A stretch of 64,000 bases of DNA, from the IMG/VR virus record IMGVR_UViG_2778261375_000003. The stretch is one strand, 5' to 3'. This DNA comes from a virus. Taxonomy: Duplodnaviria; Heunggongvirae; Uroviricota; Caudoviricetes. Positions 3,407-56,790 of the stretch are shown here, in pieces. The position numbers and the translations under genes were made by a program. Every line of letters starts with the position of its first letter. Positions within the stretch are counted from its first letter, which is position 1. The notes beneath the pieces were generated by a model. It made no database searches. It worked only from the letters and a program-made list of their open reading frames with translations, and was not told where the DNA came from.

Positions 3407-6053
3407 TTGCATATTCCTTAGCCCAGCGGGGCAGTGATAACGTCTTAATAGCTGGCCATTCATCGGTATTGAGGCAGTCAGCCAGGGTTCGCAGATTGCG
3501 GTGATATTCCAGCTGACCTGCCAGTTTTGCTTCTTCGCCCATCATGAAAATTTCAACCGGATAACGTCCGCATTCAATAGTTGTGCTGGCAACCAGAAAA
3601 ACGAAAGTTGGCTGCACTCCAAACTGTGCTTCATAACCGTCACTGTAGAATGCATCCTGAACGTGATAGCGGTAGTCGTAATAAGCGGTTTTGAATCGTT
3701 GAATATCCGCCGTAGTTTTCACGTCCATGATCCAGTGAAATTCAGGGATAATTTTGTCCGGACGGCACCGACACAAAATTCCTGTTTCAGGATCTTCCCA
3801 GTAAATTGATGATTCAGCGTGTCCGGCGCTTTCAACAAGCCATTGCCCCAGCGGCAAAGCCATAACGCTTTGATACATGAGTTCAATTTTCCGGCCTTCT
3901 TCCGCAGTGATAACCGTTTTTCCTGTGCTTGCGCATTCCATCAGAAACGCTTTCTCTTCTTCTTTTCCGGCGTTTGTACGGCGGTTAAATTCAGGTGCTA
4001 CGATAAAGCGGTTACTGAATTCTTCCGGTTCAAGTACCCGGCAGTGGAAAGCGGTTCCTAAATCGAGCGTTTTTGTCTTTGTGGTGTCCACGGGGGCATT
4101 TTTACGCCACAAATACAGTGCCGGAGTATCAGCAATGTCGTCGAGCTGAGACTTACTGACACCGGGACCCGCGTGGTAACTCTCATTCGAAATTCCGTAA
4201 TAAATACCTGGCTCTATGTCTTCTACGATTACGGGATCTGCGACTTCGCCAGTTTCATCACTGCAATCGCGATGCGGATCGCTGCCAGCATTCTCATTGT
4301 GCGGATGTTCAGCGCCTTCCATTTCCTCCGGATCATTTTCCTTAGCTTCAACCTGATTCTCTTCACCGAATGTTTCCTGGTATGTTGCGTCGCCCATCAC
4401 CGCACCACAGTCAGGGCAGTTATCCCCGCCAGTCTGACCGCAGGCATTGCAGACTATTTCCGGTTCCTGTTGCACTACTGGCTCAGGTTGTTTCACATCC
4501 GGGCTGGTTTTTTCCGTTTCTGGCGTGTTTTGTTCCGTTTCTGGCTGGTTCTGGTACACAGAATCGCGAGTCTGGATCCCCTTAACCCATTTCGGATCGT
4601 TCGGGTCGCTAATTCCGTCAACAAATTCACCACGTGATGCAGCAAGCAATTTATCGGCATCGACAGGATTTTTTGATGGAATGTTTTTCCGGGCTTCATG
4701 GAGTTCTGCCCGCAGTTCCTGATATTTCGCATCAACAGAATTTACCTGTGACTGAGCATCCAGCGGCTGCGTGTCCTGATGATGTTCAGTTGCGTCCGGT
4801 TCCATTGTTTCAGCCTCTCCCTGTTCATCTGCCGTTGTTCCAGTTGGTTGTGGTTTTTCTTCATCATCCTGTTTTCCTTCTTCTGTTACACGCTGCGGCA
4901 TCGGGGCAGAGGAGCGACCGCAGGCAATATCCACGATTTCCGGATCAGGGTTGGCATGATCGGTTTCAGTCAGTACTTTGTTCAGATATTCAGTGACGTG
5001 CGCGGGGATGACCTCGATCCCAATTGGTGCTTTTTTCACGGACGCAACCACGATGGCGCGTGAATAATCCAGCCCGCCAGGCATGGTGATGAATTTGTCG
5101 CGGAAAACAGAAAAGGGCGGTTTATTTTCAGCGATAATTTCCTCGACACGTTTAGCGTGTGCCGGATGAAGGTTATAAATGTCCACGTCCATTGAACGAG
5201 CCAGTACGCCAGTGGCTACGTCGCGCGCCAGTGACGTCAGATCGTGAACGAAACCTTCGCCGCGATCGGTGAGGTTCCCGCCGCCAGCATTAGCGCCGGA
5301 AGCCGTGCGCGTGATGCGTGAAACACGATTTCCTTTCATCCACTCTTTTGTCAGCAGACCGCGATCGGTGTAGTCTGCGTCCAGGTATGCTTCGAAAAAA
5401 GCAGTCATCAGCCCCAGGCTTGAATTGCCTGGATTAGGGAAAACTCTGTCAGTATCACGCACCAGTTTGTGGAGATCGCGAATTTCCAGCGGGTCGAGCA
5501 GGCTGGTTTTGTGGGAAACAGCCAGGGCAGTAACAGCTGGTAGTTCTTCAGCTCGTGCAATGTGTAATGCCTGGAGTTTGTCGCGTGAAACGTGCGTTAC
5601 CGGTTTTTCGCTGCCGTGTTGAGCAAGCCAGCGAATGGGCAGCTCCTGACCGGAAATCGGGAGTAGCATATTCTCCTCAATCTCCGTCATGTCTTCGCCA
5701 TTAACATTGGTATTGTCAGTGCTGGCTGGTTTGTCCTGCGCAGAGGATGAGGGCGCGATAAATACCATTGTGATGCCATCTTCCCCGCCTTTTTCGTAAC
5801 GGTTGCAGAATTCCGTATCAAATACGCCCTCTGGTGGAAGGTCATCAACAACGGGCAAATTGACGCGAACAGGTTTTTTAAAGTCATCTTCATCGTAGCC
5901 AGCATCGTCAATCGCAACAGCACCACGGGATATGGCAATGGATAATTTTTTCGCTTCAGCCCAGTAGAAACCGCCTTTAATACCGAGACGTTTTCTTACT
6001 TTGTCATTTTTTGCTTCGTAATACAGTGGGTAAACTTGTTTATCGGTGCTCAT
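3399..6053 (-). CDS. recE: RecE exonuclease VIII
   Basis: 884-aa ORF overlapping recT start; acidic low-complexity middle and C-terminal nuclease domain (...[22 protein letters not shown]...) as in Rac RecE. Confidence 0.9.
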
Positions 6054-6894: not shown

Positions 6895-7289
6895 AATTAT
6901 CTCCATTTTTACAAATGAATTTTGTCGATGCGGTGCCTGGTGCCTCCAGGTGACGTTAACCAGTTAACAATTAACGCCGGATAATCCACCCATAACACTG
7001 ATGCTTTTAACTGTTCCGCGTGCGCTTAGCCGCATTCACCGCATCACAAAATTCACTTTAAAAAGGGGCGGCAGGGCAGCCACGGAGTAGAACTGATGCC
7101 GCCAAAGACTAGACACAGCAATGTCGTTATTTACAACCGGAGGCGCACTCCCACCATTTAAATTTAACAGACAAGACCGACTCTTTATGAATACCGGAAA
7201 TGCGCCTTCGTGTTGTGCGCCTGTCTTTTTACCACTTCAGGCTCGGTGGTATACTGGAGTTCTCACACAACCAGTAATAAGGTATTCCG

Positions 7290-14015: not shown

Positions 14016-14203
14016 AAACGGTTTGCGGGAAAAGGAGAGTTAAGTAGAATTGCAGCGGGTGCTTGAGGCTATCTGCCTCGGGCATGAACACCAACGGCAG
14101 ATAGATAAAAGCCCCACCCGACTATAAATCGAAGTGAGGCCCCTATATGCTCGTCACATATAGATTGCCTCTTACGGACCGAAAGGTCAAGGAGAAGCAG
14201 GCT

Positions 14204-14359
14204 ATGAAGCAGCAAAAGGCGATGTTAGTCGCCCTGATCGTCATCTGTTTAACCGTCATAGTGACGGCACTGGTAACGAGGAAAGACCTCTGCGAGGTAC
14301 GAATCCGAACCGGCCAGACGGAGGTCGCTGTCTTCGTAGACTACGAACCTGAGGAGTAA
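14204..14359 (+). CDS. hok: Hok/Gef-family type I toxin
   Basis: 51 aa MKQQKAMLVALIVICLTVIVTALVTRKDLCEVRIRTGQTEVAVFVDYEPEE, near-identical to recalled HokD/RelF; in-frame upstream ATG at 14147 could act as a mok-like leader. Confidence 0.9.
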   Translation: MKQQKAMLVALIVICLTVIVTALVTRKDLCEVRIRTGQTEVAVFVDYEPEE

Positions 14360-15472: not shown

Positions 15473-15762
15473 TGGTGGATTTACGTAAAGCGGCGCGGGG
15501 GCAGATGTGCACCGTCAGAATTCCTGGCTACTGCAATCACAATCCCGAAACTTCTGTGCTGGCGCATTACAGGCTGGCGGGGACGTGCGGAACAGCGACA
15601 AAACCACACGATATGCAGGCAGCGATTGCCTGTAGCTCATGCCACGATCTAATCGACGGGCGGGTAAAAACCAGCGATTACACCAAAGAAGAATTACGCC
15701 TGATGCATGCAGAAGGTGTTTTTCGCACACAAGAAATCTGGAGAAAGGAAGGTTATTTATGA
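15472..15762 (+). CDS. DUF1364 protein, YbcO-like
   Basis: MVDLRKAARGQMCTVRIPGYCNHNPETSVLAHYRL...CSSCHD resembles recalled YbcO; ATGG start overlaps previous stop. Confidence 0.7.
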   Translation: MVDLRKAARGQMCTVRIPGYCNHNPETSVLAHYRLAGTCGTATKPHDMQAAIACSSCHDLIDGRVKTSDYTKEELRLMHAEGVFRTQEIWRKEGYL

Positions 15763-16313
15763 TTTACCCAACAAATACAGGCAAAAGCGGGGAACACCTT
15801 CGTCTCACCACGCTGGAAAGTGTCTGGATTCAGGGAAAACTGCGCATGTGGGGGCGCTGGTCGTATATTGGCGGCGGTAAGACGGGAAATATGTTCAACC
15901 AGTTGCTGACCTCTAAAAAGCTGACAAAAACGGCAATTAACGAGGCGCTCCGGAGGATGAAAAAAGCAGGTCTGGACAAACCTGAACTTGAGGCTTTTTT
16001 GCGGGATATGATCAACGGCAAGCAAAAAAGCTGGCTGGTGCATTGTACTGATGCAGAGGCGTTATGCATTGATCGGGTGATTAGTGAAGTGCTGGCAGAA
16101 CACCCAGGATTGATTTGTATCCTCCGGCAACGATATGAAGGGAGGGGGATGACTAAGCGAAAAATGGCTGAGTTGCTGAATGATTCACACCCTGAGTGGT
16201 GTTACGCCACGTGCCGTAATCGCATAGATGCGTGGTTGAAAATGGCAGAGTTTATGCTCTATCTGCCGATGCGTGATGCATTCTCTTCCGGGGATCTAAA
16301 AACCGTCTGTTGA
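15759..16313 (+). CDS. Late-gene antiterminator, Q21-like
   Basis: 184 aa; blocks LRMWGRWSYIGG / CTDAEALCIDRVI / RIDAWLKMAEFMLYL parallel recalled phage-21-type Q; followed by promoter plus short terminated leader. Confidence 0.6.
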   Translation: MIYPTNTGKSGEHLRLTTLESVWIQGKLRMWGRWSYIGGGKTGNMFNQLLTSKKLTKTAINEALRRMKKAGLDKPELEAFLRDMINGKQKSWLVHCTDAEALCIDRVISEVLAEHPGLICILRQRYEGRGMTKRKMAELLNDSHPEWCYATCRNRIDAWLKMAEFMLYLPMRDAFSSGDLKTVC

Positions 16314-16339
16314 CTCAATCTGTTATCCGGGGCTATATT
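16310..16339 (+). promoter_or_regulatory. Candidate late promoter pR'
   Basis: TTGACT (16310-16315), 18-bp spacer, TATATT (16334-16339), overlapping the Q stop codon. Confidence 0.4.
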
Positions 16340-16400
16340 CCTCACGCGCCAGCAAAATCTGGCGTCGGGATTGGCGTCCTGGATAGAGACCGCGACAGAT

Positions 16401-16422
16401 ACACGCCGCGAGCGTGTTTTTT
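16401..16422 (+). terminator. Candidate tR' terminator of a short pR' leader RNA
   Basis: acacgccgcgagcgtgt hairpin plus tttttt, about 75 nt downstream of the predicted pR' start. Confidence 0.5.
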
Positions 16423-16583
16423 ATTGTCGTATGCACGCGCACATCTGAATTATGGTGGGCTGTGTGGGGGCGGAGAGATCCGCGCCGGTCGGTTTCCCGG
16501 TTACGCCAACCCTGCACAGTTCACCACCAGATGATTGGCGTCGTCGGTGGTGAGTTATTAAGAAACCACCAGAGGGCGTCATT

Positions 16584-17195
16584 ATGACAACTCAAATTTC
16601 TGTTGAAACTCTCTCCCCGATCACCCATAACCAGATTCCTGTTATTACCACCGAACTTTTGGCGCAGCTTTACGGCACTGAGCCGGTGCGCATTCGCCAG
16701 AATCATCATGAGAACAAAGTACGCTTCGTTGAAGGGAAACACTTTTTCAAAGTTGTTGGTAATGACCTTAAAGAATTGCGGGTAGCTTTAAACTACTCAC
16801 AAAATTTGCGGGTTACTTTAAGTAACTCACAAAATTTGCAACCATCTTTAAGAGGGTTACAAATTTCCCCGAAAGCCCGCTCCCTCATCCTCTGGACAGA
16901 ACGCGGAGCAGCCCGTCATGCCAAAATGCTCGAAACCGATCAGGCGTGGGATGTGTTCGAAAAGCTGGAAGACTGCTATTTCAGACAAAAGGATCCGTCA
17001 GCGCCAGCTTCATGCCAGAAAAGTTACGACACGCGAGTTCTCTGTTATCAGCGAGGCGGTGTCACTGTTTCCACAATTCAGTTGCGGGATGATGATATTG
17101 TTATTTCCCTTGAGTCATGGCTGGAACTGGCGAGAGCCAATGGTTGGTTTGTTGTTCGCAGAGATAAACTGGTGGAAAGGCTGATGCAGCTTTAA
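16584..17195 (+). CDS. ORF6N-domain protein (antirepressor-like), with internal 30-bp tandem repeat
   Basis: N-terminus PVITTELLAQLYGTEPVRIRQNHHENKVRFVEGKHFFKV fits remembered ORF6N pattern; 30-bp unit repeated about 2.5 times at 16776-16865. Confidence 0.55.
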   Translation: MTTQISVETLSPITHNQIPVITTELLAQLYGTEPVRIRQNHHENKVRFVEGKHFFKVVGNDLKELRVALNYSQNLRVTLSNSQNLQPSLRGLQISPKARSLILWTERGAARHAKMLETDQAWDVFEKLEDCYFRQKDPSAPASCQKSYDTRVLCYQRGGVTVSTIQLRDDDIVISLESWLELARANGWFVVRRDKLVERLMQL

Positions 17196-17290
17196 AAAAG
17201 TTCTTGCAATTTTAGCCATAAACTGCTTCAATTCCGTTACGCTTCGCAAAGCTGTATCGCGAGGCGAACCAAGCGCATGAACTTTACCAG

Positions 17291-17316
17291 AACCCGCCAT
17301 TGAGCGGGTTTTGTTG
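17291..17316 (+). terminator. Rho-independent terminator after ORF6N gene
   Basis: aacccgccattgagcgggtttt hairpin plus T-rich tract. Confidence 0.6.
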
Positions 17317-17332
17317 TTTCTGGAGAACACCC

Positions 17333-17605
17333 ATGAAATTTTATGAATTATCTTCTGAGTCCCGATCTCAGGCCAAAATCACACTGGGTCAGTTGATTGT
17401 GGCTCGGGCTAACACCGGGATGGATGATTTTGAAAATTTGGGGCATTGCATCGCTGCCGCGTTTATTGCGATGGAGCGCCATGAAAGCGCCCCTGAGGTT
17501 GGTGAGGGGCGTAGCGGGAACGGAATACCCGTTAATGGCGATCAAAAACTAGCATCCAACGTCGTGAACGTGATGATTCACTATCCGTGTGACTCTATAG
17601 CGTGA
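17333..17605 (+). CDS. Hypothetical cargo protein
   Basis: 90 aa from MKFYELSSESR; ggagaa RBS; no family recognised. Confidence 0.45.
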   Translation: MKFYELSSESRSQAKITLGQLIVARANTGMDDFENLGHCIAAAFIAMERHESAPEVGEGRSGNGIPVNGDQKLASNVVNVMIHYPCDSIA

Positions 17606-17661
17606 CAGCGACAGTAAATTGGGTAAAATTTTCTACGCTGCAATATGCGAAAGGGGATGAA

Positions 17662-18231
17662 ATGAACGATCTGCCCGATGACTACTTTCTTGATGCTGAC
17701 GATGATCTTGTCGATTTTCTTGAAAAACAGGGTGAAGACTGCATAGGTGAAATCTATCGGTCAAATTCAGTAAATAAAGAAAATGGCTATAAGCTGTTGA
17801 GCATCCTAATCGTCGGTATTGGATCTTCATTTTTGCTGTTAACGCAAAAGACGCAGATTGACTTTCTTAGCGCAGGCATTGCCGTTTTCACCGTGTACTG
17901 GTCAGTTTGTGCTATTTATCTTGTTATTAATGTGCTGACGGTTCACACATACGGACTTGTTTCCACATCACCTGCAGATTTGTATACCGAAGCTTATAAA
18001 GGGATTTGCGAGTCCGATTTCGAGAACCTTAAGGCAAGGGGTTTTGTCGGTAAAAATGACCGCCTTTCAGTGATGAGGCGGTACAGATTGAAAACGTTAT
18101 GTGTGACTGCTGATGAGTTGCTCCAGGTCAATGAAACCATAAGAACCAGACTGAAAAAAGCAAGGATAGCGACTATCCTTGCTCCTGTTTACGCGATTAT
18201 TATTTCAGCTATCACTTACCTTTTTTTCTGA
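17662..18231 (+). CDS. Hypothetical multi-pass membrane protein (cargo between Q and holin)
   Basis: ATG 17662 behind aaagggga RBS; acidic N-terminus then three hydrophobic helices. Confidence 0.5.
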   Translation: MNDLPDDYFLDADDDLVDFLEKQGEDCIGEIYRSNSVNKENGYKLLSILIVGIGSSFLLLTQKTQIDFLSAGIAVFTVYWSVCAIYLVINVLTVHTYGLVSTSPADLYTEAYKGICESDFENLKARGFVGKNDRLSVMRRYRLKTLCVTADELLQVNETIRTRLKKARIATILAPVYAIIISAITYLFF

Positions 18232-18452
18232 TTCCTTCAGCGGAATCACCAACGATCCTTCTACCGACTGAAAAACGGTCGGGTTGAACTGGGGCCGGTT
18301 TTTGCTGCTGTGTTGGCTGTGGCTTGCTTTCACCTGCCGGCTTGTTTGACTGGCTCATCTAATTCTCCATATTTGATAAGGTTATCTTTGGCGATTTAAC
18401 GATATCAAACACGAGGATATACCGCCAGAAGCTTAATCTGGCACTCCATCTG

Positions 18453-18477
18453 GCCCCGGCATGTCCCGGGGCTTTTT
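18453..18477 (+). terminator. Hairpin terminator upstream of lysis cassette
   Basis: gccccggcatgtcccggggc followed by ttttt. Confidence 0.5.
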
Positions 18478-18575
18478 CGTTGTTAGGCTCCGGAAACATC
18501 CTCGACTTCTTGTGAGCAAGCCTGAGAGCCTGAATCTTACACTTAGCACCATCCGAACTCTCGGAGGTGAGGCTT

Positions 18576-18917
18576 ATGAAAATGCACAATGCCCCTCATT
18601 CCTGGCCTGACTTACTGGAACTCTTACAAAGTTGGTGGCGTGGAGATACGCCGCTGGGCGCAGTGGTTATGTCAATTATTATGGCTGGTTTGCGCATTGC
18701 CTATTTTGGCGGTGGCGGCGGCTGGAAACGAAAAACGCTTGAGATTCTGCTTTGTGGTGCTCTGACGCTGACCTTTGCATCCGCGCTTGAGTATGTCGGA
18801 TGGCCTAAATCACTTTCTGTTGCCATTGGTGGTGGGGTGGGGCTGATTGGTGTTGATGCTATTCGTGGTGCGGCAATGAGGGTCATCGGTAACAAGTTCG
18901 GTGCCCATAAGGAGTAA
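18576..18917 (+). CDS. Holin, lambda S family, with dual-start motif
   Basis: MKMHNAPHS... (Met1-Lys-Met3 like lambda S); three hydrophobic segments, glycine-rich C-terminal region; ggaggtgagg RBS; directly upstream of endolysin. Confidence 0.8.
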   Translation: MKMHNAPHSWPDLLELLQSWWRGDTPLGAVVMSIIMAGLRIAYFGGGGGWKRKTLEILLCGALTLTFASALEYVGWPKSLSVAIGGGVGLIGVDAIRGAAMRVIGNKFGAHKE

Positions 18918-18920
18918 TTA

Positions 18921-19397
18921 ATGCAGACACTTAATTCCCAGCGTAAAGCTTTCCTTGATATGGTGGCATGGTCAGAAGGAACAGATAACGGACGGCAGAA
19001 AACCAGAAATCACGGTTATGATGTTATTGTCGGTGGCGAACTGTTCACTGATTACTCCGATCACCCCCGCAAACTTGTCACGCTAAATCCGAAACTCAAA
19101 TCAACAGCCGCCGGACGTTACCAGCTTCTTTCACGCTGGTGGGATGCCTACCGCAAGCAACTTGGTCTGAAAGATTTTTCTCCAGAAAGCCAGGATGCTG
19201 TAGCGCTGCAGCAGATTAAAGAGCGTGGCGCTTTACCGATGATTGACCGCGGCGATATTCGTCAGGCAATCGACCGTTGCAGCAATATCTGGGCTTCGTT
19301 GCCGGGCGCTGGTTACGGTCAGTATGAACATAGAATCGGTGACCTGATTGCCCGATTTAAAGAAGCTGGTGGGGGGGTAAATGAAGCTGAGATATAA
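18921..19397 (+). CDS. Endolysin, lambda R-type lytic transglycosylase
   Basis: 158 aa; ...NSQRKAFLDMVAWSEGTDNGRQKTRNHGYDVIVGGELFTDYSDHPRKLVTLNPKLKST... nearly identical to recalled lambda R. Confidence 0.95.
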   Translation: MQTLNSQRKAFLDMVAWSEGTDNGRQKTRNHGYDVIVGGELFTDYSDHPRKLVTLNPKLKSTAAGRYQLLSRWWDAYRKQLGLKDFSPESQDAVALQQIKERGALPMIDRGDIRQAIDRCSNIWASLPGAGYGQYEHRIGDLIARFKEAGGGVNEAEI

Positions 19398-19773
19398 GCT
19401 GGTTATTGTTGCCTTCTTTGTTACCGTCATCGGTTCTTTTATCTGGTCTGCCGGGCATTACTACAGCAAATATCAGCACGAAAAGGAGCGCGCTGATGAG
19501 GCTGTACGAAATGCTGAATCTGCAACAGCCATTACCAGTAACGTCCTGCAATCACTGCAAATCATCAATACAGTTATAGAGGCTAACCAGCATGCAAAAC
19601 AGCAGATCGCACTGGAGTCACAGAGAACCCAGGAAGATATCAAAGTGGCTGTTGCGGATGATGATTGCGCTGTTCGTGTTGTTCCTTCTGGCGCAGTTAA
19701 GCGGTTGCACGAATACGCGAACGGTATACGTGTCGGTGCCGGTCATTCCGTTACCAGCAAGTCTGACGGCTGA
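19381..19773 (+). CDS. Rz-like i-spanin
   Basis: 130 aa; N-terminal TM helix then coiled-coil periplasmic domain; immediately after endolysin. Confidence 0.7.
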   Translation: MKLRYKLVIVAFFVTVIGSFIWSAGHYYSKYQHEKERADEAVRNAESATAITSNVLQSLQIINTVIEANQHAKQQIALESQRTQEDIKVAVADDDCAVRVVPSGAVKRLHEYANGIRVGAGHSVTSKSDG

Positions 19774-33388: not shown

Positions 33389-33975
33389 TGGATATTCTCT
33401 CTACACTTTTTCATCAGCAGAGCAGAAAAATAGGAATGATTGTTCCCAGTGTTGTTATTTCAGAGAAGCATACAGATATGCTTGAAATAACAGAGCATCC
33501 GGTAGAGGTCGGGGCCGCTGTCGCTGATCATGCCTATAAAAAACCGTCAGAAGTGGTGATGGAGGTTGGTTTCGCCGGTGGCGGCGCATTGCTGGATTTT
33601 GCCAGTAACCTGACGGCTACCAGCCTGCTCGGCCTGAGTCCTCAGCAGACGTATCAGGAGCTACTGGGTCTGCAGGAAAGCCGTATCCCCTTCGATGTGG
33701 TAACCGGTAAACGGCTGTACAGCAACATGTTGATCCGGGCGCTGGAAGTGACGACGGACAAGACAACCGAAAACGTCCTGTCCGCCGTCCTCACCCTGAG
33801 GGAGGTCATTATCTCCCGGACACAGCAGATTACCGTCGCGGATAAAACCAACATGAAGGAAGGGGCCAGCACGTCGGCGGTACAGAACAGCGGCAACAAA
33901 ACCACAAAGCCTCCAGATACTTCACTGCTGAAAAGCATCACGGGTAACGTGGCGTCATTACTGGGGGGCGGCTAA
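33388..33975 (+). CDS. Tail/baseplate protein (hypothetical), GTG start
   Basis: 195 aa; GTG start overlaps tape-measure stop. Confidence 0.5.
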   Translation: MDILSTLFHQQSRKIGMIVPSVVISEKHTDMLEITEHPVEVGAAVADHAYKKPSEVVMEVGFAGGGALLDFASNLTATSLLGLSPQQTYQELLGLQESRIPFDVVTGKRLYSNMLIRALEVTTDKTTENVLSAVLTLREVIISRTQQITVADKTNMKEGASTSAVQNSGNKTTKPPDTSLLKSITGNVASLLGGG

Positions 33976-53951: not shown

Positions 53952-54563
53952 CCCAGAAAAACAAAAACCGGCGAGAAGTTACCACGAGAACGGAAAGTAA
54001 ACAAGAATACTCCCATTGACTTATATCAATTAATCAACTTTTTATAAGCTATCCCTAACTTATTGTGTATAGCTGAAAAGTCAGAGACAAGTTCACCATC
54101 TGCATTATTTCTTAAGTTAATAGTTTATTGCTAACTTAATTTATGTATCGACTATTGATATCCATCTTAAAGTTACAATATCCCTCTGCATTATTTTTCA
54201 TCACAAATAATATATCTATTGCACTACACTCACCTGCTCTAATAAATTTGTATTTTTAAGTCACAAATGCTATCTTTTCGCATCATATTGACCTTTTAAT
54301 CGTTCAGGCTTATAGTTCCGCCGTCGTAGCAAATTCTGCGACCGGGTTTAGCAGCCTGAATGATTGTGCGGACAGCCGCAGATATCCGATATTGCGGTAT
54401 TTTTGTGTCCGTAAAACCGTGTTACGCCCAAATTATGGTGGGGCGTGATGGGGAGGCTTCGGCCTGCTGGTTTCACAATCGCCAGTCTGCTAACCCCGTC
54501 ACGTCCTGCCACCTGTTTAGCAGCGGGTAGCAGGTTGTTAAACCTGATTGTGAGGCCGTAACT

Positions 54564-54785
54564 ATGGTTAATGCCAATCCTTGCGCACGCCAAGAATTCA
54601 TCTGGCGTTTCTATTCCTGTAAAAAACACCACTATCACTTCGTCATCGCAGCAACAGAAGACGAAGCACGCTCTCAATTGCCTGATGGCCCCTGCATTTT
54701 TACTGCCCGTTTTTCAACTAACTCGCGCAATTCACTTAGTTACTGGAACCTCCCCTTCTCTGCCGACGTTCAGGGGGATTTATGA
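54564..54785 (+). CDS. Icd-like small protein (putative cell division inhibitor family)
   Basis: 73 aa; EFIWRFYS...HFVIAATEDEARSQL...TARF fits remembered Icd-like pattern; gagg RBS; ATGA-coupled to antirepressor. Confidence 0.4.
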   Translation: MVNANPCARQEFIWRFYSCKKHHYHFVIAATEDEARSQLPDGPCIFTARFSTNSRNSLSYWNLPFSADVQGDL

Positions 54786-55825
54786 AAAAACCTCTCGTCA
54801 CCCGTAATGAAATAGCCGAAGCGATCGCCCTGCATACAACCTGTATGCCGACACGGGAGATCCCCGGCGCAATTGCCAACTATTTCATGATAACCAGACG
54901 TTTTTATACCCGAACAGATAAGGCTGTGATCAACAAGCTACTGATAGCCGAGATCAGGGATTATTTGATTGAACAAGGACGTCTACGTTACGCAACAGTG
55001 GCAGCAGAAATGAGAAAGGAGGCGCGCAGAATGACCGGTAATAATTTGAATGTTGAAAAACCAGCACCTGTTGCTTCAGCTACGCCATCACCAGCTGTGA
55101 ATGTTATCTCCAACACTGGAGACACAATCGACAGCCAGACACTGTTAAAGATGGTCAATGAAGCTCGTAAGTTATGTGGGGAACCAGAGGTTCGGAACAA
55201 CAAATTCATCGAAAAAATACTCGACGAATTAGAAGGTGAGGACGGTTACACAAAAAGTGCAACCGTGCCGCCAGGTGGCGGTACGCCTATGGTTGTCATA
55301 ACCATGACCTACAAACAAGCCCTGCGAGTCGCCGCACGCGAATCAAAAGCCGTCCGCCGTTCGCTGATCGACAAACTGGAAGAATTGCAGCAGGCAAACT
55401 CCCCTGCCCCATCGATCCCCCAAACATTACCAGAAGCTCTACGCCTGGCTGCCGAGTTGGCAGAACAGAAAATGCAGCTGGAACAACAGCTGGTGGCCGC
55501 CGCTCCTAAAGTCGATTTTGCCGACCGGGTATCAGTGGCTAATGGAATCCTGATCGGGAACTTTGCAAAGGTCGTTGGACTTAAGCAAAACGCCCTTTTC
55601 TCATGGTTGCGCCAGAACGGCATTCTCATGGCTTTTGGTGCGCGCAAAAACGTACCGCGCCAACAGTACATCAACGCCGGGTATTTCACGGTGAAAGAAG
55701 TGGTGCTGGATGATGAAAATGGCTACCAGATACGGCTGACGCCCCAATTAACGGGTAAAGGCCAGCAGTGGTTAACTCGCAAGCTACTTGATGCTGGTTT
55801 GTTAAAACCAGTAGCAATAGGTTAA
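54782..55825 (+). CDS. Phage antirepressor with KilA-C/ANT C-terminal domain
   Basis: C-terminal 130 aa (LPEALRLAAELAEQK...GYFTVKEVV...TGKGQQWL) match the ANT/KilA-C pattern and are paralogous to next gene. Confidence 0.7.
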   Translation: MKKPLVTRNEIAEAIALHTTCMPTREIPGAIANYFMITRRFYTRTDKAVINKLLIAEIRDYLIEQGRLRYATVAAEMRKEARRMTGNNLNVEKPAPVASATPSPAVNVISNTGDTIDSQTLLKMVNEARKLCGEPEVRNNKFIEKILDELEGEDGYTKSATVPPGGGTPMVVITMTYKQALRVAARESKAVRRSLIDKLEELQQANSPAPSIPQTLPEALRLAAELAEQKMQLEQQLVAAAPKVDFADRVSVANGILIGNFAKVVGLKQNALFSWLRQNGILMAFGARKNVPRQQYINAGYFTVKEVVLDDENGYQIRLTPQLTGKGQQWLTRKLLDAGLLKPVAIG

Positions 55826-55989: not shown

Positions 55990-56790
55990 ATGCAACAAAC
56001 ATTCAATGCGGATATGAATATATCAAACCTTCATCAAAATGTCGATCCTTCAACCACTCTGCCTGTTATTTGTGGTGTTGAAATTACGACCGACCGCGCT
56101 GGCCGTTACAACCTTAATGCTCTACACAGAGCGAGCGGACTCGGTGCCCATAAAGCGCCAGCTCAATGGCTAAGAACGCTGTCAGCCAAACAGCTCATCG
56201 AAGAGCTTGAAAAAGAAACTATGCAGAATTGCATAGTTTCGTTCGAAGGCCGTGGCGGCGGCACTTTTGCCCATGAATTGCTCGCTGTGGAGTACGCAGG
56301 CTGGATTTCTCCCGCATTTCGGCTGAAGGTAAACCAGACATTTATCGACTATCGAGCCGGAAGATTACAACCAGCTATTCCGCAGAGTCTCCCTGAAGCT
56401 CTCCGTTTGGCTGCCGACCTGGCAGAGCAAAAGCAACGGCTGGAGCAAAAAATGCTTATGGATGCACCTAAAGTCGAATTCGCCGAACGCGTTGCTACCG
56501 CTAGCGGGGTTCTAATCGGCAACTATGCCAAAGTGCTCGGCCTGGGCCAAAACTATCTCTTCACCTGGTTGCGTGATAACGGAATTCTGATCGCAACCGG
56601 TGAACGCAGGAACGTCCCCAAACAAGAATACATATCTCGTGGGTATTTCACCCTTAAAGAAACCGTGATCGATACAAGCAATGGAAGCAGGATTTCTTTC
56701 ACGACTCGTATAACCGGCAAAGGTCAGCAGTGGCTGATGAAGCGATTGCTTGATGCTGGTGTGCTGGTACCTGTCGCGGCAACGCGCTAA
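55990..56790 (+). CDS. Phage antirepressor, KilA-N plus KilA-C domains
   Basis: N-terminal KilA-N-like region (...NLNALHRASG...AQWLR...FEGRGGGTFAHELLAVEYAGWISP...); C-terminal ANT domain paralogous to previous gene; ggagaaaaa RBS. Confidence 0.75.
   Translation: MQQTFNADMNISNLHQNVDPSTTLPVICGVEITTDRAGRYNLNALHRASGLGAHKAPAQWLRTLSAKQLIEELEKETMQNCIVSFEGRGGGTFAHELLAVEYAGWISPAFRLKVNQTFIDYRAGRLQPAIPQSLPEALRLAADLAEQKQRLEQKMLMDAPKVEFAERVATASGVLIGNYAKVLGLGQNYLFTWLRDNGILIATGERRNVPKQEYISRGYFTLKETVIDTSNGSRISFTTRITGKGQQWLMKRLLDAGVLVPVAATR

Follow-up and report, generated by a model that had tools for sequence, protein, structure and literature searches.

Anatomy of the interval between the Q-like gene and the holin gene

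We analyzed the interval between the gene for a Q-like late antiterminator and the holin gene in a 64,000-nucleotide (nt) stretch of Caudoviricetes DNA (IMG/VR record IMGVR_UViG_2778261375_000003; this whole stretch is called the window below). The original prediction had placed three cargo genes there, and all three open reading frames (ORFs) were found, at 16584-17195 (203 amino acids, aa), 17333-17605 (90 aa), and 17662-18231 (189 aa). Our analysis slightly favors reading the interval as a mosaic of three independent units: an antirepressor module, a late promoter with its terminator, and an accessory slot that holds a putative defense cassette. The cassette consists of the gene of the 189-aa membrane protein, here called mem189, and a gene on the opposite strand for a 48-aa protein, small48. 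It is a conserved, so far unnamed and uncharacterized gene pair. The anatomy of the interval, the homologies of its genes, the pairing of the two cassette genes, and the positions they occupy in other prophages are direct observations.

The gene order is that of a lambdoid prophage, namely DUF1367, DUF1364, DUF1133 (the Q-like protein), the ORF6N-domain protein, two hypothetical proteins, holin, endolysin, and Rz, and positions 16300-18600 are 100% identical to chromosomes of E. coli isolates from chickens. On the left, the product of the plus-strand Q-like gene (15759-16313) matches Pfam DUF1133 (E = 6e-108), Phage_antitermQ (27.5 bits), and PHROG 753, "anti-termination protein Q-like". This DUF1133-type Q has no sequence relation to the phage-82-type Q of Gifsy-1, a Salmonella prophage. 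On the right lies a lambda-family holin gene (18576-18917, plus strand), assigned by Pfam Phage_holin_3_1 (E = 2e-27) and by the RefSeq annotation of the identical locus, followed on the same strand by the endolysin gene (18921-19397) and, 3' of that, Rz (19381-19773).

The interval had been described as the classic moron slot, and it is indeed a variable accessory slot: related E. coli prophages carry different contents inside the same flanks. No Pfam or PHROG family of lysis or structural proteins was matched by the slot proteins, which agrees with the earlier statement that none of the genes is of either kind. Terminator-like hairpins are present at 17288-17313 and 18452-18473, where hairpin terminators had been expected. 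Both are retained in distant relatives, and the count of hairpins in the region (5, vs. 2.9 +/- 1.7 in shuffled sequences) is not above chance. Overlooked earlier were the minus-strand gene (18358-18212), three Rfam RNA elements within 16333-16531, a small ORF upstream of the ORF6N gene, and the promoter-terminator unit at 17204-17320.

A convergent gene pair in the accessory slot

The plus-strand gene mem189 (17662-18231) encodes a 189-aa inner-membrane protein of PHROG 11870, as judged from its homologs, an AlphaFold2 (AF2) model, and hydropathy. A GTG at 17602 could be read as the start, but the ATG at 17662 is the start in every homolog. The protein had been described as having three helices and an acidic N-terminus; hydrophobic segments are indeed located at about residues 42-63, 66-94, and 166-189, and the first 30 residues carry a net charge of -11. 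In the AF2 model (mean pLDDT, the predicted local confidence score, 83), a long N-terminal helix runs into the first transmembrane helix (TM1), which is followed by TM2 and a predicted cytoplasmic helical region, and the C-terminal part is a long helix running into TM3. We found 145 homologs, nearly all of 189 aa, across the Enterobacterales (Escherichia, Klebsiella, Citrobacter, Enterobacter, Salmonella, Yersinia, Serratia, Proteus, Morganella, Providencia, Edwardsiella, and Pantoea); every one of them carries a hypothetical annotation and lacks a Pfam domain. A profile search of 1.84 billion representatives with the mem189 family gave 93 clusters at 50% identity. Homologs occur in just five phage records, all as hypothetical proteins, and the window allele is found in 7 of 5426 complete E. 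coli genomes. A sequence search of the family against PDB gave no match, Foldseek comparison of mem189 with viral models gave nothing at E < 0.4, and literature searches turned up no gene specifically described for this slot. Likewise, mem189, small48, and the 90-aa protein gave no significant match in Pfam, NCBIfam, or PADLOC, and the PHROG family of each is of unknown function.

A promoter-like site, GTGACA-16-TAAAAT (17602-17629, plus strand; 10 of 12 positions in the consensus scan), precedes mem189, its activity being predicted only. The sequence GGTAAAAT, which includes the TAAAAT hexamer, is conserved about 30 nt upstream of the mem189 start in most loci, and no -35 hexamer is conserved.

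The second gene, small48 (18212-18358, minus strand), is convergent with mem189, and the 3' ends of the two genes overlap by 20 nt. The functional unit thus has two genes, and the membrane protein is not the lone gene it had been taken for. The small48 protein is basic and rich in Pro, Gln, and Lys, and belongs to PHROG 14506; its net charge in the window (+6) is complementary to that of the mem189 N-terminus. The pairing is seen in nearly all complete loci, and counterparts that overlap the 3' end of mem189 were found in seven of nine distant genome loci. They begin with MS(E/Q)xNKP behind a Shine-Dalgarno sequence, are 47-55 aa long, contain the motif F-x-x-x-R-x-x-V-G-D-S-A, and retain 47-69% identity. 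Pairwise differences at first, second, and third codon positions number 838, 695, and 1307, respectively, so that third positions vary about 1.7 times as much as first and second positions. The conservation of start, Shine-Dalgarno sequence, length, and motif, together with the third-position bias, indicates that small48 is a real gene. The RefSeq annotation of 71 aa was rejected as too long, because the common start of the homologs gives 47-55 aa.

We also considered that the minus-strand ORF is untranslated and owes its conservation to an antisense RNA or to the 3' untranslated region of the mem189 mRNA. The peptide would be short and of low complexity, with predicted disorder, and gene callers skip the ORF in some loci and stretch it to 71 aa in others. 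Against this stand the conserved start codon and Shine-Dalgarno sequence, length changes in whole codons, the greater variation of third codon positions, and a motif that persists when identity is only 47-69%, and we regard this explanation as very improbable. A plus-strand promoter-like site at 18346-18373 was rejected as the promoter of a small RNA, its hexamers not being retained elsewhere and overlapping the small48 Shine-Dalgarno sequence.

Between the small48 start and the closing terminator lies a non-coding block (18361-18451) that is much more strongly conserved than the genes on either side and includes the near-invariant TTTGGCGATTTAACGATATC (about 20 bases). The block occurs in 271 of the 5426 complete E. 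coli genomes, with different cargo alongside. The block contains a small hairpin, GCCAGA...TCTGGC, and an inverted repeat, GTTA (18381-18384)/TAAC (18397-18400), that covaries in two loci; it may also contain a minus-strand extended -10 element, TGATATCGT, reading from 18407 to 18399. An operator, a promoter, and an RNA element are all candidates for what the block represents. The intrinsic terminator that closes the cassette just 5' of the holin gene (18452-18480, plus strand) consists of the hairpin at 18452-18473 and a T run; in a comparison of 11 loci, compensatory changes were seen in six of its eight stem pairs.

The remaining ORF of the slot (17333-17605, plus strand) had been listed as a cargo gene in its own right, but it arose by recombination and is not an intact member of its family. 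Residues 1-72 match PHROG 26625 (E = 5e-43), a small family of proteins of about 75 aa (63-86 aa) with a conserved two-helix core at residues 1-55. The AF2 model has helices at residues 8-27 and 33-49, and pLDDT is below 50 from residue 52 on. Comparison with a sister prophage of E. coli MFDS1022581 (locus L002) locates the joint: identity ends at 17547, and the two sequences differ from there to 18370, which places recombination junctions at 17547 and 18370. As identity stops at 17547, the last 19 residues (72-90), a tail unique to the window ORF, mark a recombination joint, and the ORF may be a truncated gene remnant. At 3534-4028 the sister prophage carries a different convergent pair, in which an intact 76-aa gene (PHROG 26625) faces a 92-aa minus-strand gene (PHROG 8894). 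That pair occupies the same slot beside the same right-hand conserved block, which suggests that cassettes are exchanged between fixed flanks.

Close relatives of mem189, in more than 10 prophages, always lie between a late antiterminator (of the PF03589 or DUF1133 type, two unrelated families) and a holin, the latter belonging to four families. Two of the loci examined (L003 and L030) have a 58%-identical mem189 allele and no 90-aa ORF. Homologs of about 20-40% identity to the window protein are found either in immunity regions, next to cI repressors of the S24 or P2 type, or in short fragments of early regions, and in most of these loci a small hydrophilic ORF again converges on the membrane gene. 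At one locus (L026) the small gene is directly downstream of cI on the same strand. In L028/L029 (3174-4546) a mem189 homolog lies two genes downstream of an Acb2/Tad1-like gene (an anti-defense family) and an HTH (helix-turn-helix) gene, all of them downstream of cI, and no convergent small partner is evident there. Both slots, the one next to cI and the one that separates the late terminator from the holin, are classical sites for prophage-expressed genes.

The antirepressor module and the probable late promoter

The ORF6N gene (16584-17195, plus strand) is not late-operon cargo, as had been thought, but an antirepressor gene with its own promoter and an IsrK/C4 switch. The ORF6N domain named in the original prediction is present at the N-terminus (Pfam ORF6N, E = 5e-19) and is joined to an AnrP-like C-terminal domain, making this an antirepressor of the AnrP/Ant type. 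The 203-aa protein belongs to PHROG 2379, "anti-repressor" (E = 5e-93), and is 52% identical over its full length to STM2616/AnrP of Gifsy-1 (E = 3e-64). The N-terminal half of its gene has 98% DNA identity with that of the VT2-Sakai Ant protein, whose C-terminal domain differs. The protein also gave weak PADLOC matches to PDC-S05 (E = 5e-4) and no match in a sequence search against PDB.

Tandem Repeats Finder and translation confirmed the 30-bp tandem repeat reported within this gene (16776-16865, plus strand). The repeat is in frame and inside the ORF6N domain, and its three 10-aa units read LRVALNYSQN, LRVTLSNSQN, and LQPSLRGLQI. The program gives a score of 93 to the 30-bp period at 16776-16839 (2.1 copies with 85% matches), and a further row that overlaps this one extends to 16852; the third unit is degenerate and extends to 16865. 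Variation of the repeat number among related prophages had been proposed as a check, and the number does vary: it is precisely in the repeat that the alleles of 203, 193, and 185 aa differ, the one of 193 aa being the most frequent, and the repeat is wholly absent from Gifsy-1 AnrP. The repeat would be a variable loop insertion in the ORF6N domain. Each 30-bp unit also contains a short inverted repeat centered on TTTAA (e.g., GTTAC TTTAA GTAAC), and these inverted repeats could form hairpins or bind protein.

The promoter predicted for the module, TTGACT-18-TATATT (16310-16339, plus strand; 10 of 12 consensus positions), overlaps the Q stop codon with its -35 hexamer. It also precedes the same module in the VT2-Sakai nin region and in Gifsy-1 and hence belongs to the module rather than to Q; assignment as the late promoter of Q was rejected because it travels with the antirepressor module into contexts without Q. 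In the VT2-Sakai nin region, a 98.5%-identical copy of 16323-16984 that has a TTGAC...TATATT promoter of its own precedes the Ant gene with the different C-terminal domain. The module is mobile, following Q in the window and lying in the nin region in Stx phages.

The leader contains three Rfam elements, all on the plus strand. A c4-a1b1 target element (16333-16385; RF03163, 50.5 bits vs. a gathering score of 46.7) overlaps an IsrK-type small RNA (16346-16422; RF01394, 75.5 bits vs. 50, full length over model positions 1-77) that ends at an intrinsic terminator, found in the terminator scan as a stem (16401-16417) with a T run. A C4-type antisense RNA element follows (16448-16531; RF01695, 66.7 bits vs. 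45) and is the counterpart of the STnc1160/orf45 region of Gifsy-1. An Rfam scan of Gifsy-1 gave the same three matches in the same order between the Q gene and STM2616, and the two leaders are 89% identical. The heptamer ACGCCAA of the C4-like RNA (16503-16509) is complementary to TTGGCGT at 16371-16377, which falls inside both IsrK and the a1b1 element, and to 16535-16541; copies on both sides of the C4-like element are also a feature of the P1 c4 system.

Sequence reading and alignment with Gifsy-1 placed the small upstream ORF region, the counterpart of orf45, at 16449-16587 (plus strand). The ORF equivalent to orf45 runs from an ATG at 16449 to a TGA at 16550 (33 aa), its frame shifted by a 2-nt difference from Gifsy-1. 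A separate ORF from an ATG at 16531 to a TGA at 16587 (18 aa) overlaps the ORF6N start as ATGA.

In Gifsy-1, read-through of the IsrK terminator yields a silent isrK-orf45-anrP mRNA, and the short IsrK RNA opens orf45 in trans, the translation of which is coupled to that of anrP (Hershko-Shalev et al. 2016, PMC4825925). AnrP increases the expression of antQ and brings about prophage induction, which has been demonstrated in Gifsy-1 only (PMC4825925). By analogy, we infer the same regulatory logic for the window module. A constitutive promoter would give the short IsrK RNA, and read-through transcripts carrying the C4-like RNA, the small upstream ORF, and the antirepressor gene would be translationally silent. 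Pairing of IsrK/a1b1 with the C4-like element would then open the upstream ORF, from which translation would pass to the antirepressor, and this protein would inactivate the prophage repressor and promote induction. The frame shift of the upstream ORF relative to orf45 weighs against a full parallel, and the coupling step may therefore differ here. By its sequence, 16310-17195 is an antirepressor module of the Gifsy-1 isrK-orf45-anrP type, related to c4-icd-ant of P1/P7, and as such it represents known biology.

A more P1-like module is present elsewhere in the window (54310-55825), which thus has two RNA-controlled antirepressor modules. It has an a1b1 element at 54310-54362 (55.5 bits), a second C4 antisense RNA at 54431-54516 (69.6 bits), and a small ORF (54564-54785), the end of which overlaps the start of the gene for a 347-aa P1-Ant-like protein (54782-55825); a KilA-N/ANT protein is encoded after it, at 55990-56790. 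Other RNA genes of the window are sok (14204-14359) beside hokD (region 14057-14359), DicF (7066-7117, minus strand), the RalA antitoxin RNA (2169-2347), and SraC/RyeA with SdsR/RyeB at the left end (463-607).

Downstream of the antirepressor gene, 17204-17320 (plus strand) is probably the late promoter and terminator (pR'-tR'). It consists of TTGCAA, a 17-nt spacer, TGcTTCAAT, a transcript of about 80 nt, the hairpin at 17288-17313, and a T run. Its identity as pR' is suggested by the layout of other prophages. In E. coli AR_0067 a Q gene of the same type is directly followed by a near-identical copy of 17196-17320 with no antirepressor module between them; the unit there has TTGATT, a 17-nt spacer, TGcTTCAAT, about 55 nt, and the hairpin GAACCCGCCATTGAGCGGGTTTT, and the mem189 homolog comes next. 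Serratia quinivorans has a comparable promoter-hairpin unit after its DUF1133 Q gene. Because of these two layouts, we read 17204-17320 as a predicted late promoter-terminator from which Q was probably separated by insertion of the antirepressor module, so that the ORF6N gene most likely lies upstream of the late promoter. A point against this assignment is that the candidate late -10 hexamer, TTCAAT, lacks the usual A at position 2 and failed the criteria of the promoter scan.

In Gifsy-1, IsrJ is found where this unit lies in the window, and the two share the -35 hexamer TTGCAA and a similar terminator, but the unit scores below the Rfam isrJ model. IsrJ itself (33406-33480 in the Gifsy-1 locus, L025) may be the terminated late-promoter transcript of Gifsy-1. 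The layout of Q, isrK, antirepressor, mem189, and small gene is also present in PP818812.1 ("Actinobacillus phage vB_Apl-pPE4", assigned to Actinobacillus pleuropneumoniae; L024), in which the Q-antirepressor region is 83-86% identical to the window DNA and the membrane gene only about 68%; the host assignment may deserve a check.

Possible functions of the cassette and comparison with known systems

What the cassette does as a whole we infer from its positions and from a distant relationship of mem189 to known effectors. PycTM is a membrane effector of Pycsar that kills the infected cell once a cyclic pyrimidine has been made, and the CBASS 2TM effectors are likewise membrane disruptors activated by cyclic nucleotides. 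The system in a paper that mentions PycTM (NAR 2026) is cyclase-linked. One member of the mem189 family, P0287, aligns along almost its whole length with the PADLOC PycTM model (E = 1.5e-8) and matches a CBASS 2TM effector model (E = 4e-5), and it has a precomputed Pfam PycTM hit (PF18967). P0287 shares the acidic N-terminal motif and the convergent partner, is encoded downstream of cI, and is found at E = 6e-21 by a profile of the close family of the window mem189. Weaker contacts with PycTM were seen for P0281 (E = 0.007) and for one further member (E <= 0.01); testing of 20 further members singly and of 33 more as a set had added one weak match. The match between P0287 and PycTM lends support to mem189 being a membrane-perturbing effector.

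The suggestion that mem189 acts in superinfection exclusion or abortive infection is accordingly retained as the best available reading of the cI-adjacent homologs and the P0287-PycTM match, neither of which is proof. Abortive infection or exclusion seems to us the likeliest role of the cassette, though we rate its chance at somewhat less than even. The acidic N-terminus of mem189 would be cytoplasmic, and the protein, distantly PycTM-like, would perturb the membrane and so cause abortive infection or exclusion. The small48 protein, along with the antisense overlap between the transcripts, would hold mem189 in check or tune it. It is also possible, if more doubtful, that a cyclase-free PycTM-like effector and a convergent, disordered, basic microprotein constitute an undescribed two-gene prophage immunity cassette that moves between the cI slot and the late-terminator/holin slot, with the small protein and the antisense overlap serving as a trigger or brake in place of the cyclic-nucleotide signal.

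Several results count against a defense role. The window mem189 and 38 close homologs have no PycTM match in Pfam or PADLOC, and only about 3 of some 85 family representatives tested touch PycTM, just one of them strongly. No cyclase or nucleotidyltransferase was seen among the called neighbors in the approximately 20 loci examined, and structure searches with mem189 returned generic long-helix bundles only. Given so thin a link, with few representatives matching, no match of the window protein, and no adjacent cyclase, we have not filed mem189 as a PycTM protein. Moreover, the first unit that comes after the late terminator is the cassette, both in the window and in close relatives, a position equally suited to a late role such as lysis timing.

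Such a role would make mem189 and its small partner accessory lysis proteins (an antiholin, a holin modulator, or a lysis-timing pair) under control of Q together with the holin. The membrane gene is the first after the late terminator and lies directly 5' of the holin gene, whatever the holin family, in the window and more than 10 close relatives, and its product is a small multi-helix protein of the inner membrane. However, neither the mem189 family nor the 90-aa and 48-aa proteins matched a holin, antiholin, or lysis family in Pfam or PHROGs, the kind of homology that had been named as fatal to the cargo interpretation. The homologs of about 20-40% identity are located beside cI repressors, far from lysis genes. 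Terminators stand on both sides of the cassette, and sister prophages with near-identical lysis genes have unrelated cargo in its place. We consider a lysis function unlikely.

We give a similarly low probability to an addiction module of the toxin-antitoxin kind, in which mem189 would be the toxin and the small protein, the antisense transcript, or both would be the antidote, the pair stabilizing the prophage or affecting host physiology with no antiphage role. Convergence with a 20-nt overlap makes the two transcripts antisense to each other, and the two proteins have opposite charges. In addition, many E. coli genomes apparently keep alleles related to that of L003, one example being a defective prophage beside trkG. 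Against this, no similarity to known toxin-antitoxin families was found. Many toxin-antitoxin modules also act in defense, and hence this explanation competes only in part with a defense role. Finally, although the slot content differs among relatives and the Gifsy-1 interval also holds true cargo (gogA and a tRNA), it is highly improbable that the window carries three independent late-operon cargo genes (morons) with the ORF6N gene among them: homology data already contradict this for the ORF6N gene, which has its own promoter and IsrK/C4 switch, is homologous to the tested antirepressor AnrP, and belongs to a module found also in the nin region of Stx phages, and the other two ORFs are a recombination remnant and half of a two-gene unit.

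The IsrK/C4 RNA switch of Salmonella Gifsy-1 is widespread in E. coli lambdoid prophages, where it moves as a module, and this mobility, together with the length-variable repeat of the antirepressor, bears on prophage induction and on cross-talk between prophages. At least some of the 271 genomes that have the conserved block carry the 58%-identical mem189 allele. If the cassette is a defense system, PycTM-like membrane effectors can work without a nucleotide cyclase, and a microprotein-controlled type is added to the known prophage defenses; if it tunes lysis, it is a new lysis accessory.

The antirepressor module has two close parallels. The locus in Gifsy-1 has the same order of Q-like gene, IsrK with its terminator, C4-like RNA with a small ORF, ORF6N antirepressor, and promoter-terminator unit. 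It differs in its phage-82-type Q (vs. the DUF1133 type), in the frame of the upstream ORF (shifted by 2 nt in the window), and in lacking the 18-aa repeat insertion of the window antirepressor, and the downstream unit of the window falls below the isrJ model. The immI region of P1/P7 contains the c4 antisense RNA, icd, and ant. There the antisense RNA is processed from the transcript of its own target, the targets lie upstream (a1b1) and downstream near the ribosome-binding region, and a small ORF is coupled to the antirepressor gene; the window has the same arrangement of targets, and similar processing and coupling are predicted for it. The antirepressor is however of the ORF6N/AnrP family in the window and P1 Ant in P1/P7, and the short upstream RNA is, according to the Gifsy-1 work, an activator in trans.

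The slot resembles the classical moron sites between Q and S (stx in Stx phages, gogA in Gifsy-1) in its exchangeable content, conserved flanks, and terminators on both sides. It differs from them in holding a convergent pair with a conserved non-coding block that is common to other cargo types, and in that its own promoters are only predicted. The mem189 protein is, like PycTM and the CBASS 2TM effectors, a small all-helical membrane protein of 160-190 aa. Unlike PycTM, it has no adjacent cyclase, reaches neither model, and has as its partner a tiny disordered protein encoded on the opposite strand. The lysogen-expressed exclusion genes next to cI, rexAB of lambda and sieB of P22 and lambda, offer a last comparison. 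They have no sequence similarity to the cassette, in that no match to SieB or any other Pfam family was found in 70 family members (for SieB, 39 close members at E up to 5 and 31 distant members at E up to 0.1), and the window copy lies in the late region. Nevertheless, distant homologs of the cassette occupy the same cI-adjacent slot as rexAB and sieB, and a membrane component is involved in each case.

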